DNA from: an uncultured delta proteobacterium
GTDB lineage: Bacteria > Myxococcota_A > UBA9160 > SMWR01
DNA: 64,000 nt
Direction of reading: 5' to 3'
Assembly: GCA_963832165.1 (NCBI GenBank)
Contig: CAWHTE010000011.1
Location: 32,001 to 96,000, forward strand
The translations under genes were made by a program, and so were the position numbers. Of this stretch, positions 46,880 to 57,264 are shown in pieces. The notes beneath the pieces were generated by a model. That model was not told the DNA's origin, made no database searches, and saw only the letters and a program-made list of their open reading frames with translations. Position 1 is the first letter of the stretch; the number at the start of each line of letters is the position of its first letter.

Positions 46880-48382
46880 GTGAAGCCGACGAAGCCGCCC
46901 GGATCCTGGAACGCTGCCTGTGCTCGCGCGGGAACGGCGGCGTGGCTCGTGCTTCCCGCGCCCGCGGCTGCGCATTCCTTCGGGCGCGTCTACAACCTGC
47001 CGGTCCCGTTCTGGCTCTACGGATTCGCAGCCGCTGCAGCGCTGCTCCTGTCCTTCCTGATCGTCGGATACTTCGTCGCGGTGCCGCGGTCTGCGTCGGC
47101 CGAGGGAGCGCGCGACATCGGGCAGCTCGGCTGGGTTCGCGCGCTGCGCCGCGTTCGTCTCGTGCCGGCGCTCGCAGTGATGAGCGTGCTCGGGCTGCTG
47201 CTCTGCATCCTCACGGGCTTCTTCGGCAGCCGCGATCCCTACCGGAATTTCAGCATGACCTTCTTCTGGGTCGTGTTCACGCTGGGATTCGCCTACTTCA
47301 CTGCTCTCGTCGGCAACCTGTACGACGCGATCAATCCCTGGCGTGTGATCACGCAGGCGCTCGCGCGGGTGTTTCCGCAGTTCGCGCGCGGGCGGGTGCA
47401 TTATCCGGATGCGCTCTCGTACTGGCCCGCGCTCGGTCTCTACATGGCGTTCATCTGGATCGAGCTCTTCGGTCGCACCACGCCGTTCTCGCTCGCCGCC
47501 TGTCTGCTCGCGTACACGTTCATCAACCTCGCCGGCGCGTGGTGGTTCGGATCGCCCGCATGGTTCCGATACGCCGAGTTCCTGAGCGTCTTCATGCGAC
47601 AGCTCGGGCGCATGGCGCCGCTCGAGTATCGGCTTGCGGTGCCCGACGGCACCGCAAGCCGATTGCGCTGGCGCGTCCCGTTCTCGGGCTTGCTGCAGGA
47701 ACGCGCCGAGAGCCTGAGCCTGGTCGTGTTCGGGCTGTTCATGCTCTCGTCCACGGCCTTTGACGGCCTGCGCACGACGGCGGTCTGGTTCAGGCTCTTC
47801 TGGGACGATCCCACGGGCCTCCTGTTCGCCTGGCAGGGACGCAACCCCATCTACGCGTTCGAGACGCTGCGGCCGTACTACCTCGCGTACGAGACGTTCT
47901 GGCTGGTGGCGTCTCCGTTCGTGTACCTGGCGATCTATCTCGGGTTCATCTGGCTCGCGCGGCTCGTCACGCGCAGCGTGCGGCCGATGCGCGAGCTCGC
48001 GCTCGACTTCGCCCATACGCTCTTGCCGATCGCCCTGGTCTACAACGTCACGCACTACTTCACGCTGATCCTGACCGAGGGCGCGAGGATCGTGAGCCTC
48101 TCGTCCGACCCCTTCGGCTGGGGATGGGATCTGCTGGGCACGGCGGGCGTGCTCCGCGCGCCGATCATCCCGGACATGAACTGGGTCTGGCACGCGCAGG
48201 TCGCGCTGATCCTGTTCGGCCACATCGCGAGCGTCTATTTCGCGCACGTCGTCGCGCTGCGCGTGTTCGCGACGCGACGCGCGGCGATGCTGAGTCAGCT
48301 GCCGATGCTGGGCCTGATGGTGCTCTTCACCGTCGCGGGGCTCTGGATCCTCGCGCAGCCGATCCAGTCGGGAGCGCGATAG
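46880..48382 (+). CDS. Conserved polytopic membrane protein
   Basis: HSFGRVYNLPVP start, INPW, YNVTHYF, SDPFGWGWDLLGT, about 10 TM helices. Confidence 0.75.
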   Translation: MKPTKPPGSWNAACARAGTAAWLVLPAPAAAHSFGRVYNLPVPFWLYGFAAAAALLLSFLIVGYFVAVPRSASAEGARDIGQLGWVRALRRVRLVPALAVMSVLGLLLCILTGFFGSRDPYRNFSMTFFWVVFTLGFAYFTALVGNLYDAINPWRVITQALARVFPQFARGRVHYPDALSYWPALGLYMAFIWIELFGRTTPFSLAACLLAYTFINLAGAWWFGSPAWFRYAEFLSVFMRQLGRMAPLEYRLAVPDGTASRLRWRVPFSGLLQERAESLSLVVFGLFMLSSTAFDGLRTTAVWFRLFWDDPTGLLFAWQGRNPIYAFETLRPYYLAYETFWLVASPFVYLAIYLGFIWLARLVTRSVRPMRELALDFAHTLLPIALVYNVTHYFTLILTEGARIVSLSSDPFGWGWDLLGTAGVLRAPIIPDMNWVWHAQVALILFGHIASVYFAHVVALRVFATRRAAMLSQLPMLGLMVLFTVAGLWILAQPIQSGAR

Positions 48383-50114
48383 CGCGCCGGCGCGCGAGCG
48401 CCGCGAGTACGGCGGCGCCCGCGGCGAGCGAGAGCGAGGTCCCGGACTCGGGCAGTGCGGTGAGCACGGCGGAGGTGCCCGGCGATCCGGGGTCGCCCAG
48501 CGGGATCTCGAGCGCGGGACGCCCGTGGGCGACGTTCTTGGCGTCGAGGGCCAGATGCTCGCGAAGCTTGCCCTCGAGCCGCACGACCCAGAAGCCGCCG
48601 CTCGCGGTCGAGAACCAGATCTCCCCGCGCTCGGCGTCGTAGTGGTTGTGCGCCCACGCCTGGTCGAGCTGCGTGGCCGCCGTCGGGTCGACGTCGCCCG
48701 GGTTGAAGTACGCGACTTCCGTCGGCCGCACCGGGTCGCGCACGTCGAACACGCGGATCCCGGCGTTCCACATCGACGCGATCGCGAAGGTGGTGTCCGT
48801 CGCGTCGTCGAAGTCGTGGTAATGCACCGACTGCGCGGTATTCGAGTCGTTCTGCGCCAGGCAGTTCTCGACCTGGTTGATCTCGAGGCCCATCTGCGAG
48901 GCGAGCACCGGAGCCGTGGGGTCGTCGATGTTGGTGAGCCACGGCTCCGCGGGCCCGAGGGCCGGGTTCAGGATCTCGGGAAGGCAACCGGTCGCGTCGC
49001 CGATGCTCTCCTCCGAGTGGATCACATAGCGCTTGCCGCCGATCGTGCCGGGACGCACCGAATGGCCGCGTCCGCTGCGCTGGCTGATGGCGCGCGGCAT
49101 CCCCTTCGGCGTGTTCGACGCGTCGCGCTCGAGCCACTCCGTGACGTCGAGGATCGTGAAGATCTCGAACACGGGGAGCTGCGAGCCGAGGTAGAGGATC
49201 TTGCTGTCCGCACTCCAGTCGATGTTGGTCGCGGCCTCGTGACTCGTGTAGAGCGGGTGCTGGATCTCGCGAATCTCGGGGGGCAGGAAGTCATCGACGT
49301 CGGCGTACGGTCCGGGCGCCAGCATCGGGCCTTCCATCACGTCGTGCAGGTTGCCGAGGTAGACGACGCCCGTCTGCGGATCGGAGTCCCACAGCCCGGA
49401 GATGTCGACCATCTGGAGCGGCTGCGTGGCAATGACGTATCGGCCGTCGGGCGAGATCGTCAGGTTGTGGATGTTGTCCGGCCAGAAGTACGTGGCCATG
49501 TGCTTCCACTTGCTGCAGTCCGGGTCCGAGACGTCGTAGATGTCCATCGGCCTCGGGTTCAGTTCCACTGGCAGGCTCAAGATGGTGTTGCCGTACTGGC
49601 CGGCCACGAGGATCGACCGGCCCGACGGTGTCGTGAGGGCATGAATCGTCTCGCCCACCGCGACCGAGCCGGGGTGGCGGAGCGTGGCGACGTGTTTCGG
49701 ATGTGCGCTGTCGGCGACGTCGACCACCGCCACTCCGCTGCCGGGCCCCACGCTCGGTAGGCCCGCCACCGTGAGGTTGTTGCCGACGTACGCGCAGTGG
49801 CCCGCGAACGCCGTGTTGGCGTTGCCCGTGGGCGTTCGACCGTCGAAGTCGAGCCGGGTGTGGCCAACGAGCGAGAGGCCGCAGTTGTAGCCGAGCTGCG
49901 CGCGCCCCGAGGTCTGATCCGGCCGCGGAACGTCTCCCTGGATGCCGGGCTCCGGAAGGTCGTTCGCACCGCACTGATGATCCTGTAACAGCACCGTTTC
50001 GAGGTTGTAGATGTCCGGATCCCAGTCGGCGGAGGCGAGGTAGGCGACGAGCGGGAGCCCGCACAGCGCACCACCGGCGGCCAGCGCGATCGTCGTCCTG
50101 CGGATGGACTTCAT
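48327..50114 (-). CDS. Secreted LVIVD-like repeat protein with variant PEP-CTERM (LPES) tail
   Basis: VAVVDV, GIRVFDVRDPVRPTEVAYF; LPESG + TM + RRR. Confidence 0.72.
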   Translation of the reverse strand: MKSIRRTTIALAAGGALCGLPLVAYLASADWDPDIYNLETVLLQDHQCGANDLPEPGIQGDVPRPDQTSGRAQLGYNCGLSLVGHTRLDFDGRTPTGNANTAFAGHCAYVGNNLTVAGLPSVGPGSGVAVVDVADSAHPKHVATLRHPGSVAVGETIHALTTPSGRSILVAGQYGNTILSLPVELNPRPMDIYDVSDPDCSKWKHMATYFWPDNIHNLTISPDGRYVIATQPLQMVDISGLWDSDPQTGVVYLGNLHDVMEGPMLAPGPYADVDDFLPPEIREIQHPLYTSHEAATNIDWSADSKILYLGSQLPVFEIFTILDVTEWLERDASNTPKGMPRAISQRSGRGHSVRPGTIGGKRYVIHSEESIGDATGCLPEILNPALGPAEPWLTNIDDPTAPVLASQMGLEINQVENCLAQNDSNTAQSVHYHDFDDATDTTFAIASMWNAGIRVFDVRDPVRPTEVAYFNPGDVDPTAATQLDQAWAHNHYDAERGEIWFSTASGGFWVVRLEGKLREHLALDAKNVAHGRPALEIPLGDPGSPGTSAVLTALPESGTSLSLAAGAAVLAALARRRAIALPTGSAARGSRAPRR

Positions 50115-51399: not shown

Positions 51400-52365
51400 C
51401 TACGGCGTGAATTCGTCCCCGTCGTGCGCGACCGCGATCGGACCGTCGTACGAGTCATCGACGAGGCTCGTGATCTGCAGGTCGAGCACGGCGGGCTGTC
51501 GCATGCGGATCAGCACGAGCGCGCCGACCTGGGCGCGCCGCGCGATCGCGCCGACCTCCGCGAAGTCGGTGTAGATCGCGGCCTCGCGCTTCAGGCGCTC
51601 CGGGTCGACGGTCAGGTTCGCGGCCTCCGCCTCCTCGGGCGTCGGCACGTGATTGAGATCGTGGAACAGGAAGTCGGCGCGGCGCGCGAGCGCCTCGAGC
51701 GCGGGACCGTCCCAGCCGGTGCCGCCGATCACTGCGCTCTTGTTCTTTGCCTCGATCCGCCATGCGAGCGCGGGCAGGGGACCCCCCGCGAGCGCGCCCG
51801 CGCGCAGCGCGAGCGCGCCGAGCGTCTCCTCGGCGCCATCGCCGACCTCGCGCGCGTCGAGCGCGGGCGGCGCGGGGTCGTCGCCGAGCGCGCGCGAGCG
51901 CGCGACCACGCCCGCGGAGATCTGCGCGACCACGTGCTGCGCGAGATCCGCGGTGCCGGGCGGGCCGACCACGCGCAGCGGCGCGCGCCGTCCGGCGAAC
52001 CACGCCGCGGCGAGCAGGTCGTCGAGGCCGACCGTGTTCTCGGGCAGGAGGCTCGTGAGCACGACGAGGCCGGGCTGGCTCGGCGGGATCTTCGCCGCGC
52101 GCAGAGCCTCGGCGACGCCACGGCCCGCGTCCACGAGCAGGACCGAGTCCCCGAGACCCACCGCGATCGAGGTCCCGCGCCGGTTGTGATCCTCGCCGGC
52201 CGCAGCGGTGCCGAGCACCACCAGCATAAAGCGTTCGAATTCGCGCGGCGTGAGCGGCAGGAAGCCCGCCGAGACGCGGTCGAACTGCCACGCCGCGCAC
52301 GTGAGCACCCAGCTCATCACGCCCACCGCGAGCGCAAGCACGAGCCCGACGACGCGCAGGTTCAC
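51400..52365 (-). CDS. RNase Z/AtsA-like MBL-fold protein lacking metal ligands
   Basis: VLGT, LLVDAGRG, LRVVGPPGT; HxHxDH position reads SLLPEN; GTGA overlap with purU. Confidence 0.75.
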   Translation of the reverse strand: MNLRVVGLVLALAVGVMSWVLTCAAWQFDRVSAGFLPLTPREFERFMLVVLGTAAAGEDHNRRGTSIAVGLGDSVLLVDAGRGVAEALRAAKIPPSQPGLVVLTSLLPENTVGLDDLLAAAWFAGRRAPLRVVGPPGTADLAQHVVAQISAGVVARSRALGDDPAPPALDAREVGDGAEETLGALALRAGALAGGPLPALAWRIEAKNKSAVIGGTGWDGPALEALARRADFLFHDLNHVPTPEEAEAANLTVDPERLKREAAIYTDFAEVGAIARRAQVGALVLIRMRQPAVLDLQITSLVDDSYDGPIAVAHDGDEFTP

Positions 52366-53222
52366 GAGAAGACGACCGTCTTGTTTCCGTATACGAGCAC
52401 GCGGTCTTCGAGGTGCCAGCGAACCGCGCGCGAGAGCACGTTGCGCTCGACGTCGGCGCCCTTGCGAACCAGTTCGGCAGCGGTGTCCCGGTGCGAGGCG
52501 CGGATCACGTCCTGCTCGATGATCGGACCCTCGTCGAGGTCCTTGGTGGCGTAGTGCGCCGTAGCGCCGATCAGCTTCACGCCGCGCTCGTGCGCCTGCT
52601 GGTACGGGCGCCCGCCGCTGAACGAGGGCAGGAACGAGTGGTGGATGTTGATGATGCGATGGGCGAAGCGCTCGACGAACTCCGAGGAGAGGATCTGCAT
52701 GTAGCGCGCGAGCACGACCAGATCGATCCGCTCCGATTCGAGCAGCGCGATCTGCGCGGCCTCCGAAGCGGCCTTCGTCTCGGACTTCACGGGGATCACG
52801 CGGTACGGGATGCCGAACTGCGCCGCGACCGGTGCGAGCTGTTGGTGGTTGGAGACGATCAGCGGGAGATCGCACACGAGCTCGCCCGAGCGGTGGCGCA
52901 GCAGCAGATCCCAGAGGCAGTGATCGGTGCGCGAGACGAAGATCGCCACGCGCTTGCGGCACACGGAGTCGCACAGGCGCCAGGTCATGCGCAGGCGCTC
53001 GGCCACCTCGGCGATCGCGGCCTCGAGGCTCGTGCGATCGGTGCGCAGCTCCGCGGTGTCGAAGTGGATCCGCTGGAAGAAGATGCCCGCGGTCGTGTCG
53101 GTGTGCTGATCGGCGTCGAGGATGTTGGCGCCGTGCCCGTAGAGAAGCTGGGCGAGCGCCGCGACGATCCCGCGCTGGTCGGGGCAGGAGACGAGCAGCG
53201 TGGCAGTGGAGGAGTGGGGCAC
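52362..53222 (-). CDS. purU: Formyltetrahydrofolate deformylase
   Basis: CPDQRGIVA, LARYMQIL, INIHHSFLP, GATAHY, LDEGPIIEQ. Confidence 0.96.
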   Translation of the reverse strand: MPHSSTATLLVSCPDQRGIVAALAQLLYGHGANILDADQHTDTTAGIFFQRIHFDTAELRTDRTSLEAAIAEVAERLRMTWRLCDSVCRKRVAIFVSRTDHCLWDLLLRHRSGELVCDLPLIVSNHQQLAPVAAQFGIPYRVIPVKSETKAASEAAQIALLESERIDLVVLARYMQILSSEFVERFAHRIINIHHSFLPSFSGGRPYQQAHERGVKLIGATAHYATKDLDEGPIIEQDVIRASHRDTAAELVRKGADVERNVLSRAVRWHLEDRVLVYGNKTVVFS

Positions 53223-53254
53223 GCGCGCGAAGGTATCGGAATCGGAGTGCGGGC

Positions 53255-53330
53255 AAAAAAAGGCCCCGAGAGCAGGCGCCGGTGGTACCGGCAACCTTCG
53301 GAGCGGCTACGGCATCCGCGCTCTCGGGGC
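53255..53330 (-). terminator. Intrinsic terminator-like branched stem + U7
   Basis: GCCCCGAGAGC/GCTCTCGGGGC (53320-53330 with 53263-53273), A-run at 53255-53261. Confidence 0.65.
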
Positions 53331-53586
53331 GGTGGCGCTGGGAACCTGCGTCCCCTTTGCCGAGATTTGGAATTCGGCTCGTGGCGCTAGGACGCCGCCA
53401 CCTCACTCGCCGTAGTACTGCTTTGGTTCACCGAATCACCTCCGTCTCGGCGTGGGGTACATCCAGCGGGGCCCAGACCCCGCCTCCTGACCGGTTCCCA
53501 AGGTGGTCGCCGTTACCGCCCCTTTCCGGCCGCCCCACCCGGCCGACTTCGGCCGACTGGGACTTGGGGACGAGTGAGGTCCCCTG
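53255..53586 (-). ncRNA. Putative large structured non-coding RNA, family unrecognised
   Basis: TAAGTT -10 at 53598-53593, at least 9 helices, 10-bp long-range duplex, 11-bp terminal stem + U7. Confidence 0.65.
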
Positions 53587-53654
53587 CAACGCAACTTATC
53601 GGACGGCCGGCGGGATCACCAGACTCGTTCCCTTGAAAGCCAGGCAGGCAAACG

Positions 53655-55619
53655 TCAGGGCAGCGTGTAGGCGATCACGGCGTCGCCGATCGGCGAGCCG
53701 ACCCCGGCGTGTCCGCCCGGCGCGACGACGAGGAACTGCTTGTGGCCCGGCGCGAGCTTGTAGCTGATCGGGCCCGCGTGAAGGCCTGCGGGCAGGTCGA
53801 ACGTGGCGATCCGCGCGCCCGTGCCGACGTCGTGGACGCGCAGCACCGGAAAGCGCGTGCCGCCGTGGAACACGAGGCCGCTCGCGGTGACGAGCGCGGG
53901 TCCGTAGCCCGAAGTGCCCGGGTCGCTCTCCGCTGTGCTCGTCGACGCGCTCCACGCGATCGCGCCGCGCGCGAGGTCGACACCGACGAGCCGGCCCCAG
54001 GGCGGCCGATTGCACGGGACGTCATCGTGCTCGAACACGACGCGGCCGCCGAGCGGATTCACGCGGTAGCGGTCGCCGGTGCCGCTGCCCTTCCACAGCC
54101 AATAGAGGCTGCGGAAGGAGAACCCGCTGAGCGGGCGCACGTCGGCGCCGCCGCCGGTCGTGCGCTCGCCGACCTGCTCGAGTGTCACGATGTGCACGAG
54201 GTTCTGCACGGGCACCACGAGCATCGCGCGCTCGGGGTCGAAGCTCGCGCCCGACCAGTTCGCACCGCCGCCCGTGAACGGGTAGAGCACCGACCCGCGC
54301 AGGCTCGGCGGCGTGAATAGACCATCGTTGCGCAGCTGGGCCAGGCGCTCGCGGCACGCCGCGAGATGTGCCGGCGAGAGCCCGTAGAGATCGCCCTCGG
54401 CGAGGCGCTGCGGAACGATCGGCGGCGGCGCGCTGGGCACCGGCTGCGTGGGCCACGCGCGCTCGCCCGGCACGTCGCTCGCGGGCGCGGGCTGCTCCTC
54501 GACCGGAAAGAGCGGGCGTCCGGTCGCGCGGTCGAGCACGAACACGAACCCGTGCTTGGTCGCCTGCACGACGGCCTCCACCGACGTGCCTTCGCGCTCG
54601 AGTGTCACGAGCACGGGCGGCGCGGCGAGGTCGTAGTCCCAGAGGTCGTGGTGCACGGTCTGGAAGTGCCAGACCGGCCGGCCCGTCGCGGCGTCGAGCG
54701 CGACGACGGAGTCGCTGTACAGGTTCGCGCCGGGGCGATCGCCGCCGTAGAAGTCGGGGCTCGGCGTCGAGACGGGCAGGAACAGCCAGCCGCGCGCGAG
54801 ATCCGCCGTCATCGTCGACCACACGTTCGCGGCGCCCGCGAGCGCGATGTCGCCCTCCCAGGTCTCGTGCCCGGGCTCGCCCGCGTGCGGAATGGTGTGG
54901 AACGTCCAGCGCAGCGCGCCCGTGCGCACGTCGAACGCGCGCACGTCGCCCGGTGGCGCGTCGGGGCGCAGCGTATCGGCGATCGAGGAGCCCACGGCGA
55001 TCACGTCGCCGACCACGGTGCCGGGCGAGGTGAGGTTGTACTCGCGCGGGTCGTGGAGCGGCGCGATCCCATCGAGCAGGTTCACGCTGCCGCCGGCGCC
55101 GAAGTCGGCGCACGGCTGCCCCGTCGCGGCGTCGAGCGCGATCAGGCGCGCGTCGAGCGTGCCCAGGAATACGCGCGCGGCGCAGGGTCCGCTCGCATTC
55201 GGATCGCGCCAGTACGCGACGCCGCGGTTCTGCCACATGTTCGCGTAGATCCCGCCGCGCTCGAGCTTGGGGTCGAAGGTCCACAGCTCGCGGCCCGTCT
55301 CGGGCTCGAGCGCGATCACGCGGTTGGAGGGCGTGGTGAAGATGAGCCGACCGTCGACGACGATCGGCGTCGCCTCGAACGCGCTGCTGCGCTCCCTTTG
55401 CGGGGGCAGGGTCGCCTGCCACGAGTCGCCGTGGTGATAGGTCCAGGCCACGCGCAGCGCCGCCACGTTCGACGCGGTGATGTCGGTGAGCGGCGTGTAG
55501 CGGCCGCCGCCGGGCGCGCCCTCGGTGAAACGCCAGTCGGCGCTCTGGGGAGGCTCCGCGCTCGCCGCGTGCGCTGCGATCACGAGGCCTGCGAGCCACC
55601 GCGAGCTCACCCGGTACAT
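53655..55619 (-). CDS. PQQ-dependent glucose/quinate dehydrogenase-like quinoprotein (no N-terminal TM bundle)
   Basis: FEATPI, NRGVAYW, GAANVW, FQTVHHDLWDYD, GGANW, CNRPPWG; alternative ATG at 55628. Confidence 0.9.
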   Translation of the reverse strand: MYRVSSRWLAGLVIAAHAASAEPPQSADWRFTEGAPGGGRYTPLTDITASNVAALRVAWTYHHGDSWQATLPPQRERSSAFEATPIVVDGRLIFTTPSNRVIALEPETGRELWTFDPKLERGGIYANMWQNRGVAYWRDPNASGPCAARVFLGTLDARLIALDAATGQPCADFGAGGSVNLLDGIAPLHDPREYNLTSPGTVVGDVIAVGSSIADTLRPDAPPGDVRAFDVRTGALRWTFHTIPHAGEPGHETWEGDIALAGAANVWSTMTADLARGWLFLPVSTPSPDFYGGDRPGANLYSDSVVALDAATGRPVWHFQTVHHDLWDYDLAAPPVLVTLEREGTSVEAVVQATKHGFVFVLDRATGRPLFPVEEQPAPASDVPGERAWPTQPVPSAPPPIVPQRLAEGDLYGLSPAHLAACRERLAQLRNDGLFTPPSLRGSVLYPFTGGGANWSGASFDPERAMLVVPVQNLVHIVTLEQVGERTTGGGADVRPLSGFSFRSLYWLWKGSGTGDRYRVNPLGGRVVFEHDDVPCNRPPWGRLVGVDLARGAIAWSASTSTAESDPGTSGYGPALVTASGLVFHGGTRFPVLRVHDVGTGARIATFDLPAGLHAGPISYKLAPGHKQFLVVAPGGHAGVGSPIGDAVIAYTLP

Positions 55620-55646: not shown

Positions 55647-57264
55647 ATGAGAGAACTCCATCCGGCTCGCGATGAATTGACGCCGCTCGTGTTCCTCGAG
55701 CGCACCGTGCGTGTGTTTCCGAACAAGACCGCCGTGGTCTACGGCGACGTGCGGCGGACCTGGGCCGAGTTCGGCGAAGACGTCGGGCGCTTCGCGGGTG
55801 CGCTCGTGCGCGCGGGGGTGGCGCCGGGCGACCGCGTGGCCGTGCTGGCGCCGAACGTGCCCGCGCTGCTCGCGGCGCACTTCGCGGTACTGCTCGTGCG
55901 CGGCGCGCTCGTCGCGATCAACACGCGGCTCAACGAGGCGGAGGTCGGCTACATCCTCGACCACTCGGGCGCCAAGGTGGTGTTCGCCGACCCCGAGCTC
56001 GCGCCGCGGGTCGTGGATGCGCCGGGCGGCCTGCGCGCGCGGCCGCTGCTCGTGAACCTCGAGGATCCGGTCGCGGGCGCCACCGAGCGCGTGCTCGACG
56101 GTCCGAGCTTCGCGGAATTCCAGGGCGGCGCGCCCGTGCTGCCGATCACCGGCGGGATCGACGACGAGAACCGGATCACCTCGATCAACTACACCTCGGG
56201 CACGACGGGCCGCCCGAAGGGGGTCATGTACACGCACCGCGGCGCCGCGATCAACGCGCTCGGCGAGGTGATCGCGCACGGACTCGAGCGCGACTCGGTC
56301 TTTCTCTGGACGCTGCCGCTGTTCCATTGCAACGGCTGGTGCTTTCCGTGGGCCGTCACCGCGGTGGGCGGCACGCACGTGATGCTGCGCGCGCTCGATC
56401 CCGGCCGCGTGATCCGGATGATCGAGTCCGAGCGCGTCACGCACTTCAACGGCGCACCCACGGTGCTGCTCATGCTCGCCGAGGCGCCCGAGGCGAAGGG
56501 CGTGCGCTTCGACCCGCCAGGTCCGCGTCGCGACGGGCGGATCGCCGCCATCGCCGACGCTGCTCGCGCGGGTCGAGCAGATGGGCATCCGCGTGACGCA
56601 CCTCTACGGCCTCACCGAGACCTACGGGCCGCACGTCTACTGCGAGCTCCAGCCCGGCTGGGAGCAGCTCGACGTCGAGAAGCGCGCCGCGGTGATGGCG
56701 CGCCAGGGCGTGCCCTACCACGTCGCCACCCACCTGCGCGTGGTCGACGACGAGATGCGCGACGTCCCCGCCGACGCGCAGACGATGGGCGAGGTGGTGA
56801 TGCGCGGGAACAACGTGATGGCGGGTTATTTCGAGGATCCCGAGGCCACCGCGAAGGCGTTCGCGGGCGGCTGGTTCCACTCCGGCGATCTCGGCGTGAT
56901 GCACCCGGACGGCTACATCGAGCTGCGCGACCGCAAGAAGGACATCATCATCAGCGGCGGCGAGAACATCTCGACGATCGAGGTCGAGCACACGGTCGTG
57001 AAGCATCCGGCGGTGCTCGAGTGCGCGGTGGTCGCGATGCCGCACGAGAAGTGGGGTGAGGTGCCCAAGGCGTTCGTCGCACTGCGCCCGGGCCAGAACG
57101 CGAGCGAGCAGGAGCTGATCGAGTTCTGCCGCGAGCGTCTCGCGCACTTCAAGTGCCCCAAGGCGATCGAGTTCGGCGACCTGCCGAAGACGTCGACGGG
57201 CAAGATCCAGAAGTTCCGGCTGCGCGAGAAGGAGTGGGCGGGTCGCACGAGCCGGATCTCGTGA
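55647..57264 (+). CDS. Acyl-CoA synthetase (AMP-binding); +1 frameshift near 56520
   Basis: NYTSGTTGRPKG, FHCNGW, YGLTET, GWFHSGD, PKTSTGKIQK across two frames. Confidence 0.9.

Follow-up and report, generated by a model that had tools for sequence, protein, structure and literature searches.

A conserved RNA gene of about 330 bases was found on the minus strand of the window, a 64,000-nucleotide stretch of DNA from an uncultured delta proteobacterium. The gene is real and is not purely non-coding, since it carries a 14-codon open reading frame (ORF) with an exceptional Shine-Dalgarno (SD) sequence. Comparison of its homologues supports a stand-alone, structured and pseudoknotted RNA with its own promoter and end. 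We propose, with the case about evenly balanced, that it is a separately transcribed, translation-coupled sensor or ribosome-holding RNA that engages the ribosome and whose peptide is a by-product. Its most likely role would be under translation stress, either sensing the state of translation or holding ribosomes. Few large pseudoknotted bacterial RNAs lack an assigned function, and in the past such RNAs have mostly proved to do something basic.

The RNA lies in the 432-bp gap between purU and a gene for a PQQ-dependent dehydrogenase (53655..55619), whose adjacency is rare among homologues. Both genes are neighbours outside the RNA, and every motif quoted in the original prediction was found in place within the gap. 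A DNA search of 61 relatives matched 57 genomes, 56 of them strongly (E of 2e-12 or better) and one over a weak 36-nt stretch, and most matches span 53585-53303. The RNA occupies a single place per genome in 56 of the 61 relatives, except for one copy split across contig ends, and the host genome holds one copy. A near-identical, 5'-truncated copy in a record labelled Alphaproteobacteria (L064:1270-1727) is fused to unrelated sequence and probably belongs to a chimeric contig.

The position of purU raises the question of a cis-acting leader, attenuator or riboswitch. purU (52362..53235; above the TIGR00655 cut-off) lies 3' of the U-tract in this window and within about 1.5 kb of the RNA in 38 of 50 loci of the order, and a mini-ORF followed by a terminator is attenuator-like. 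This explanation was largely refuted and is now very improbable. At the same 50 loci, purU was divergent and upstream of the RNA in 27, downstream in only 11 and missing from the locus in 12. As had been predicted, purU has its own leaderless promoter (-10 box 53235-53230, GTG 53222), and a TAnnnT box was read by eye 6-7 nt before the start in most of the homologues shown, in both orientations. The Nitrospirota, Binatia and actinobacterial copies of the RNA have unrelated neighbours, often convergent, and no protein gene was conserved beside the RNA across phyla among the neighbours of these 34 loci. Rfam searches gave no riboswitch match, and the terminal stem must stay intact for pseudoknot C, which is described below. 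Since the orientation of purU and the identity of the neighbours vary, the RNA is its own gene, in agreement with the prediction of a stand-alone RNA and not a 5' UTR.

Other features were seen around the locus. An RNase Z-like metallo-hydrolase gene (51400-52290 of the window, minus strand), which scores below its family cut-off, accompanies both purU and the RNA, in either arrangement, at 90 of 130 non-actinobacterial loci (duplicates counted). In the segment 56500-56580 (plus strand), an acyl-CoA synthetase gene switches frame near 56510-56530, with the N-terminal part in one frame and the C-terminal 227 aa in another, pointing to an assembly error or a pseudogene. A secreted-looking protein of 594 aa (48327-50111, minus strand) had only a weak choice-of-anchor B match, and its C-terminus is presumably a PEP-CTERM-like sorting motif.

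At the sequence level, transcription from the RNA's own promoter to the U-tract is strongly supported. A sigma70-type -10 box, TAAGTT (53593..53598, minus strand), places the predicted start at about 53586-53585. Of 86 long-form homologues, 85 have a TAnnnT box preceding this hairpin at the 5' end, which bears out the minus-strand box of the original prediction; in Nitrospirota it reads TGnTATAnT. The predicted 3' end is a U7 tract (53255..53261, minus strand), conserved as a U-rich tail with at least 6 T in the final 12 nt in 79 of 87 homologues. A generic promoter scan and a generic terminator scan found nothing at the locus, the latter because the terminal stem closes a branched domain. Four metatranscriptome runs gave a weak hint of expression, with contigs over 53250-53580 that are confined to the element, one of them 342 nt long at a depth of 104 and with 4 differences. 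These runs were represented by contigs only, had no DNA control and were picked for holding the element, so the missing flanks are no evidence. None of the 20 sequencing runs listed holds half of the element's words. The minus strand folds better than shuffled sequences (z of -3.3, with 0 of 100 as good), and the plus strand is nearly equal, at -3.05. Therefore, the strand is not given by folding energy alone, and it was assigned by the promoter, SD, ORF and U-tract.

The original prediction saw no credible ORF in the gap. This was mistaken, as a 14-codon ORF with a GTG start, (M)NQSSTTASEVAAS-stop, lies at 53387..53431 on the minus strand, preceded by the extended SD GGAGGTGATTC (53433..53443, minus strand). 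Paired with the 16S tail of the same genome, this SD has a computed duplex energy of -20.7 kcal/mol; 0 of 1,439 long ORFs reach this value, even if each is given the most favourable of six candidate starts. The complementarity in this window comes to 9 Watson-Crick pairs, or 14 counting G-U. Across the 50 loci of the order, the ORF was exactly 14 codons in 46, began one codon earlier in three and was longer in one; GTG, ATG and TTG starts and TAG, TGA and TAA stops were all used. Codons 2-5 are variable and unpaired, codons 6-14 are base-paired, and codons 7-14 are near-invariant at the base level.

A second SD-like hexamer, GAGGTG (53399..53404, minus strand), lies 9 nt before the stop and overlaps the P6 strand. 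It could pair with the anti-SD, with a computed duplex of -11.0 kcal/mol. A wide search pattern, which did not require a stop codon, matched at least 80 loci, and the ORF contains GAGGU(G/A)G in 72 of the 80 examined. In all 72 loci among the matches listed, the distance from GAGGUG to the stop was 7-10 nt (chance expectation, 3.3%), and the motif was read in the EVA frame in 55, as GGG-type in 10 and as RWL-type in 7. Because the distance is fixed across any of three frames, the position of the motif appears to matter, not the peptide. Another possible explanation is that helix P6 alone can account for the conservation of GAGGUG. Eight acidobacterial loci without GAGGUG were omitted from the 72 (L271, L278, L284, L302, L305, L310, L320 and L330, at about 600-660). 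They carry the same giant SD with a 6-codon ORF, VRYGLR or VRFGLR, and a terminator-like hairpin directly after it, and they may be a separate or reduced variant.

These results bear on whether the RNA is simply a small mRNA that serves to make the 14-residue peptide (ending EVAAS), with the structure doing no more than limiting how much of it is made. The ribosome-binding site (RBS), start and stop are canonical, and the EVA frame prevails in the matches listed (above) and occurs in all 80 actinobacterial loci examined, which were selected for it. Hahn et al. interpret rreB, a small mRNA of Alphaproteobacteria, in this way (PMC5711450). However, residues 2-5 take 6-13 different amino acids each, and the constant residues coincide with paired bases and show almost no synonymous change. 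The same bases are read as RWL or GGG in 17 of the 72 loci among the matches listed. Also, the synthetic RreB and RreR peptides were unstructured (PMC5711450). A peptide product is therefore unlikely, and we favour the reading in which the RNA itself engages the ribosome.

The structure was examined with a 61-pair model on 59 aligned sequences. The pairs were formed in 96.5% of cases, and 34 of them changed on both sides, compared to 12.9 in shuffles and 7-13 in slid controls, a control that is favourable by construction because the model was drawn from the same 59 sequences. This alignment (A1) contains 59 of 87 distinct sequences, with L002 (mis-trimmed) and long or duplicate rows omitted. 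Two hairpins of the original prediction were clearly upheld: P1, the 5' hairpin (53566..53584, minus strand), has double changes in 5 of its 6 stem pairs, and P5, the GCGGGG hairpin (53466..53483, minus strand), has them in 6 of 6. Between them lie P2 (53532..53563, minus strand), a hairpin whose length varies and whose base is an invariant G-C/U-G (96.3% paired, three pairs with double changes), and the P3/P4 domain (53491..53529, minus strand), in which the P4 stem covaries by RNAalifold on A1 and P3 is poorly aligned. The predicted branched domain at the 3' end (53263..53330, minus strand) also held, including its 11-bp terminal stem, and the alignment helices of this domain were 99% paired. 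Two other predicted stems did not survive the comparison. CCCAAG/CUUGGG was complete in only 3 of 59 sequences, and GGGGAC/GUUCCC was 82.9% paired with one double change, its CCCAG strand fitting better into pseudoknot B.

Four pseudoknots were identified. In pseudoknot A, the P4 loop CGGCG (53512-53508) pairs with CGCCG just 5' of the SD; it was 100% paired, and a single sequence, L050, has both partners replaced at two of the pairs. Pseudoknot B joins the P5 loop CUGGG (53476-53472) to CCCAG (53342-53338), with 96.3% paired and one pair changed on both sides in two sequences. In pseudoknot C, the loop GCCGUAG (53313-53307) of the terminal domain pairs with CUACGGC of the ORF (53415-53409), with 98.3% paired and three pairs with double changes. 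Pseudoknot D joins the P1 loop (53578-53572) to GAGUGA of the ORF. The original prediction had proposed a ten-base-pair pseudoknot for this loop, CUCACUC; its 6-pair core stood (96.9% paired, and 2 of 59 sequences show a compensatory change at one pair), and the full 10 bp were found in 31 of 59. Pseudoknots A, B and D are thus each more than 96% paired, but with only one or two compensatory events each.

Four successive helices take up ORF nt 17-42, namely pseudoknot C, pseudoknot D, P6 (GGUGGCG/CGCCACC) and P7 (GCGUCC/GGACGC), of which two are pseudoknots. The 3' partners lie at 53331..53353 on the minus strand and were defined by the alignment helices: GGACGC, which pairs with the ORF end in P7, CCCAG of pseudoknot B, and CGCCACC of P6. 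The last of these (53331-37) had been predicted as one of two partners and was confirmed by comparison. RNAalifold on A1 favoured a CGCCG/CGGCG pairing within the ORF and missed P1, and the tool cannot show pseudoknots. The pairing inside the ORF, with zero double changes, is a possible alternative fold. For pseudoknot C, a test across phyla with a loose anchor gave 4.8-4.9 bp for a sequence's own helix compared to 4.1-4.5 for controls; this pseudoknot was tested statistically in actinobacteria and by eye in the other phyla. In L051, the ORF has gained 3 nt. This insertion displaces P6, which shows compensatory changes, and removes the stop at codon 15, making the frame longer, so that the structure is retained and the ORF length is not.

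The strand just 5' of the SD (53445..53452, minus strand) has two partners, the P4 loop in pseudoknot A or the post-ORF sequence UCUCGGC (53365-53359). The second pairing was 86.8% paired, with three pairs with double changes. In folding, UCUCGGC is part of a post-stop hairpin (53359..53378, minus strand), whose strands can alternatively pair across the RBS to give a closed state. The RBS-closing helix had a z below -2 in 38 of 59 sequences and was missing in 21; most Nitrospirota and several marine lineages have it in weak form or lack it. Computation did not reproduce the open state, since the SD still came out mostly paired when the strands of the pseudoknots were blocked in the folding model.

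The search for relatives was extended with sequence patterns. In the genome collection, the SD and ORF pattern matched 81 loci, of which 80 were examined; most are in UBA9160-type Myxococcota, and the others include Nitrospirota and Binatia. A pattern built on the consensus of Ms_IGR-5, a catalogued sRNA (RF02471), found more than 120 actinobacterial loci (80 examined). All 80 have the extended SD and a 12-codon ORF ending EVAA-x-stop, an ending that was part of the search pattern. The P6 partner, which lay outside the pattern, was present in 74 of the 80, and the equivalent of pseudoknot C covaries between GGAC/GUCC and GGAU/AUCC, with 72 of 74 concordant among kin that are not independent. 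The wide pattern (at least 80 loci) and a narrow one (19 loci) added Planctomycetota, Acidobacteriota, Eisenbacteria, Gemmatimonadota, Latescibacterota, Spirochaetota and Methylomirabilota/Rokubacteria, with phyla as labelled in the records. With E values up to 1 allowed, model R1 matched 40 of 79 distant loci, which is not independent proof since these loci were preselected for shared motifs. A looser, phylum-wide pattern matched 100 of 301 genomes, but its reversed control also matched outside the order and many families gave nothing. Judged by these shared motifs, related elements occur in about 10 phyla. They come in two forms, a short form with the promoter directly 5' of the SD and a long form with a 5' domain; this domain is absent from the actinobacterial and many other short forms.

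The four pseudoknots and the invariant unpaired or wobble positions of the 5' domain exceed what a simple RBS switch would need. This could point to a protein-binding or catalytic RNA for which translation is only an on/off control, a widening of the Ms1/6S-like idea of the original prediction. The limited distribution of the 5' domain argues against it, as do the lack of a protein gene co-located across phyla and the lack of a 6S match: 6S RNA (RF00013) was found neither at the locus nor anywhere in the 89% complete genome. Binding to RNA polymerase in the manner of Ms1 or 6S gained no support, and the invariant features point to the ribosome. We regard a protein-binding or catalytic RNA as quite unlikely and return to the ribosome-engaging RNA proposed above.

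The mechanism that we propose would begin with transcription from the RNA's own promoter to the U-tract. The extended SD would then dock a 30S subunit or 70S ribosome on the GUG, as shown for 30S docking on rreB (PMC5711450) and suggested by Ribo-seq for Ms_IGR-5 (PMC4974804). Five free codons would match the footprint of the initiating ribosome, and the four-helix core, which begins at ORF nt 17, would sit where the mRNA enters. This footprint extends to about +15, and we infer from this geometry that the ribosome could be held at or near initiation. Elongation would strip the ORF from the pseudoknots and helices. The second SD-like hexamer would meet the 16S tail as the stop codon enters the A site, and this could hold the ribosome again at termination; this step would not be general since rreB has no internal GAGGUG (0 of 80 rreB-like loci). 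The freed strands might then refold over the RBS or open the RNA to decay, so that its fold and lifetime would report translation activity. An analogy for this last step is the stabilisation of rreB by about 3.5-fold on loss of its start codon, from a half-life of 10 min to 37 min (PMC5711450). In the long form, the 5' domain would cap the ORF (pseudoknot D), capture the pre-SD strand (A) and clamp the 3' half (B), and it would thereby favour and stiffen the loadable state.

The RNA might instead be a ribosome store, a counterpart of 6S that keeps ribosomes or 30S subunits protected and initiation-like in slow growth until translation of the mini-ORF releases them. It is present as a single copy across an order and in many slow-growing soil and sediment phyla, and the element-confined contigs described above, although weak evidence, reach a depth of 104 in one of four metatranscriptomes. 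In M. abscessus, Ms_IGR-5 gave 70 RPKM by RNA-seq and 3,737 by Ribo-seq, a ratio of 53, compared to at most 1.9 for 13 other non-coding RNA rows and at most about 4 for coding rows among the rows listed (PMC4974804). This high ribosome occupancy speaks for a store and equally for the mechanism proposed above. This ratio may be inflated if RNA-seq under-counts short structured RNAs, and the authors warned that Ribo-seq may recover merely co-sedimenting RNPs (PMC4974804). However, 70 RPKM in growing M. abscessus is low for a store. Also, rreB copies are far fewer than ribosomes and twenty-fold overproduction did not slow growth (PMC5711450), which by analogy argues against bulk sequestration. 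A ribosome store thus seems improbable to us, and a sensor or ribosome-holding RNA under translation stress is preferred. The rise of Ms_IGR-5 in M. abscessus by a log2 of 2.67 with erythromycin and 1.14 with kanamycin, observed in the same study (PMC4974804), also counts in favour of this preferred reading.

A more ambitious and tentative reading, which has a minor share of our confidence, places Ms_IGR-5 and the long forms together in a single ancient class of ribosome-docking RNAs that spans many phyla and would be a counterpart of 6S at the level of translation. These RNAs would imitate the start of an mRNA and keep the ribosome in place by two anti-SD contacts together with a pseudoknot block where the mRNA enters, until they are released by translation. 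The four-pseudoknot scaffold of the 330-nt form may sense a ligand or protein and thereby gate the capture of ribosomes. The RNA ties Ms_IGR-5, an orphan actinobacterial sRNA, to elements in these many phyla, and its conserved core, a frame-indifferent mini-ORF threaded through pseudoknots, offers a mechanism testable in harmless bacteria that can be cultivated, among them M. smegmatis and Streptomyces. If it does hold or sense ribosomes, it would represent an unrecognised layer of translation control responsive to ribosome-targeting antibiotics. That the Ms_IGR-5 family is already catalogued limits the surprise.

Finally, the RNA was compared to known systems. At Rfam gathering thresholds, the whole window gave 0 matches, and the weak matches at the locus (eL15 leader, mir-9318 and others) were rejected as chance. 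RNase P, SRP and tmRNA were also rejected as identities since the genome's copies lie elsewhere, on contig C11; the SRP match in the genome is 185 nt against the large-SRP model. Like 6S and Ms1, the RNA is stand-alone and single-copy, with a size near that of Ms1 (about 300 nt), but it lacks the rod and central bubble of 6S and bears an SD and ORF. 6S RNA is a decoy that is released by being read, and by analogy the same logic could possibly apply here. The RNA resembles tmRNA in having several pseudoknots around a short internal frame and a peptide end near Ala-Ala, but it has no tRNA-like domain and has its own SD and start codon.

The likeness to rreB, one of the rreB/rreR small mRNAs (PMC5711450), is closer. 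The rreB RNA is 165 nt long, has a 17-nt SD and 14 codons, binds 30S and is weakly translated (PMC5711450). Both are stand-alone genes with variable neighbours, an extended complement to the 16S 3' end that reaches the GUG, a 14-codon ORF with a predicted pairing between its end and the 3' part, and an RBS-closing structure. The Nitrospirota and Binatia relatives carry the same AAAGGAGGTG(A/G)TCCAGTG site as rre. In contrast, the window's RNA is twice as long and has no ORF sequence in common with rreB. The rre group is defined by at least 16 nt of 16S complementarity, and the 9 Watson-Crick pairs found here compare to 17 in rreB; with G-U counted, 15 of 15 Nitrospirota relatives reach 18-19. 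The Rfam family CC2171 (RF01867) gave no match at this locus. Separately, the rreB-like loci (L398-L477) scored 40-51 bits against CC2171, below its cut-off, in 12 of 12 tested, and the Caulobacter sRNA CC2171 is therefore probably an rre gene filed as non-coding.

The best Rfam E-value at the locus belonged to Ms_IGR-5 (RF02471), with 19.3 bits and an E of about 0.07 (0.068), below the gathering threshold of 45 bits. The locus is nevertheless the best RF02471 match in the entire genome. Scores rise through the Nitrospirota long forms (26.6-29.5 bits) and a Binatia locus (L078, 23.3 bits), and they exceed the cut-off in intermediate forms (L087, 55.2; L295, 46.7) and in 4 of 4 actinobacterial loci tested. 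The 3' half is distantly homologous to Ms_IGR-5, although it scores below the cut-off here. The original prediction of an undescribed non-coding RNA is thus correct in that no Rfam family reaches its cut-off, and it falls short in that this homologue and a conserved mini-ORF are present.

Ms_IGR-5 is known as IGR-5 or ncMSMEG15794c in M. smegmatis (PMC10454040), ncMab10731 in M. abscessus and SLIV_16488 in S. lividans. Its expression is reported in S. lividans (PMC8079986), and it forms a transcription unit in S. avermitilis (PMC8780764). In its accessible portions, the literature treats Ms_IGR-5 as a non-coding sRNA and describes no ORF or pseudoknot, and the RNA is not mentioned in the available text of PMC6429828, PMC5521070 and a TRIC-seq preprint. 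The long form, the ORF in Ms_IGR-5 and the pseudoknots were not found described in the literature searched, most of it non-subscription, and a motif-discovery supplement could contain such a description. The two RNAs share the extended SD, a mini-ORF ending E-V-A-A-x-stop (a feature seen in the members here and not stated in the papers), a GGUGGC helix closing just 5' of the terminal stem, and a pseudoknot from the ORF to the terminal loop. They differ in length (about 330 nt here compared to 165-200 nt), in the additional 5' domain of 140 nt, which carries pseudoknots A, B and D, in the ORF (14 codons compared to 12) and in SD spacing, which is closer in the window's RNA. The -10 box lies about 150 nt 5' of the SD here, with a conserved domain between them, and Ms_IGR-5 starts just before its SD. 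Formally a member of neither RF02471 nor rre, the RNA is a new, larger variant of the catalogued Ms_IGR-5, and the best reading by analogy is that it works like the 30S-binding rreB mRNA from outside that group.
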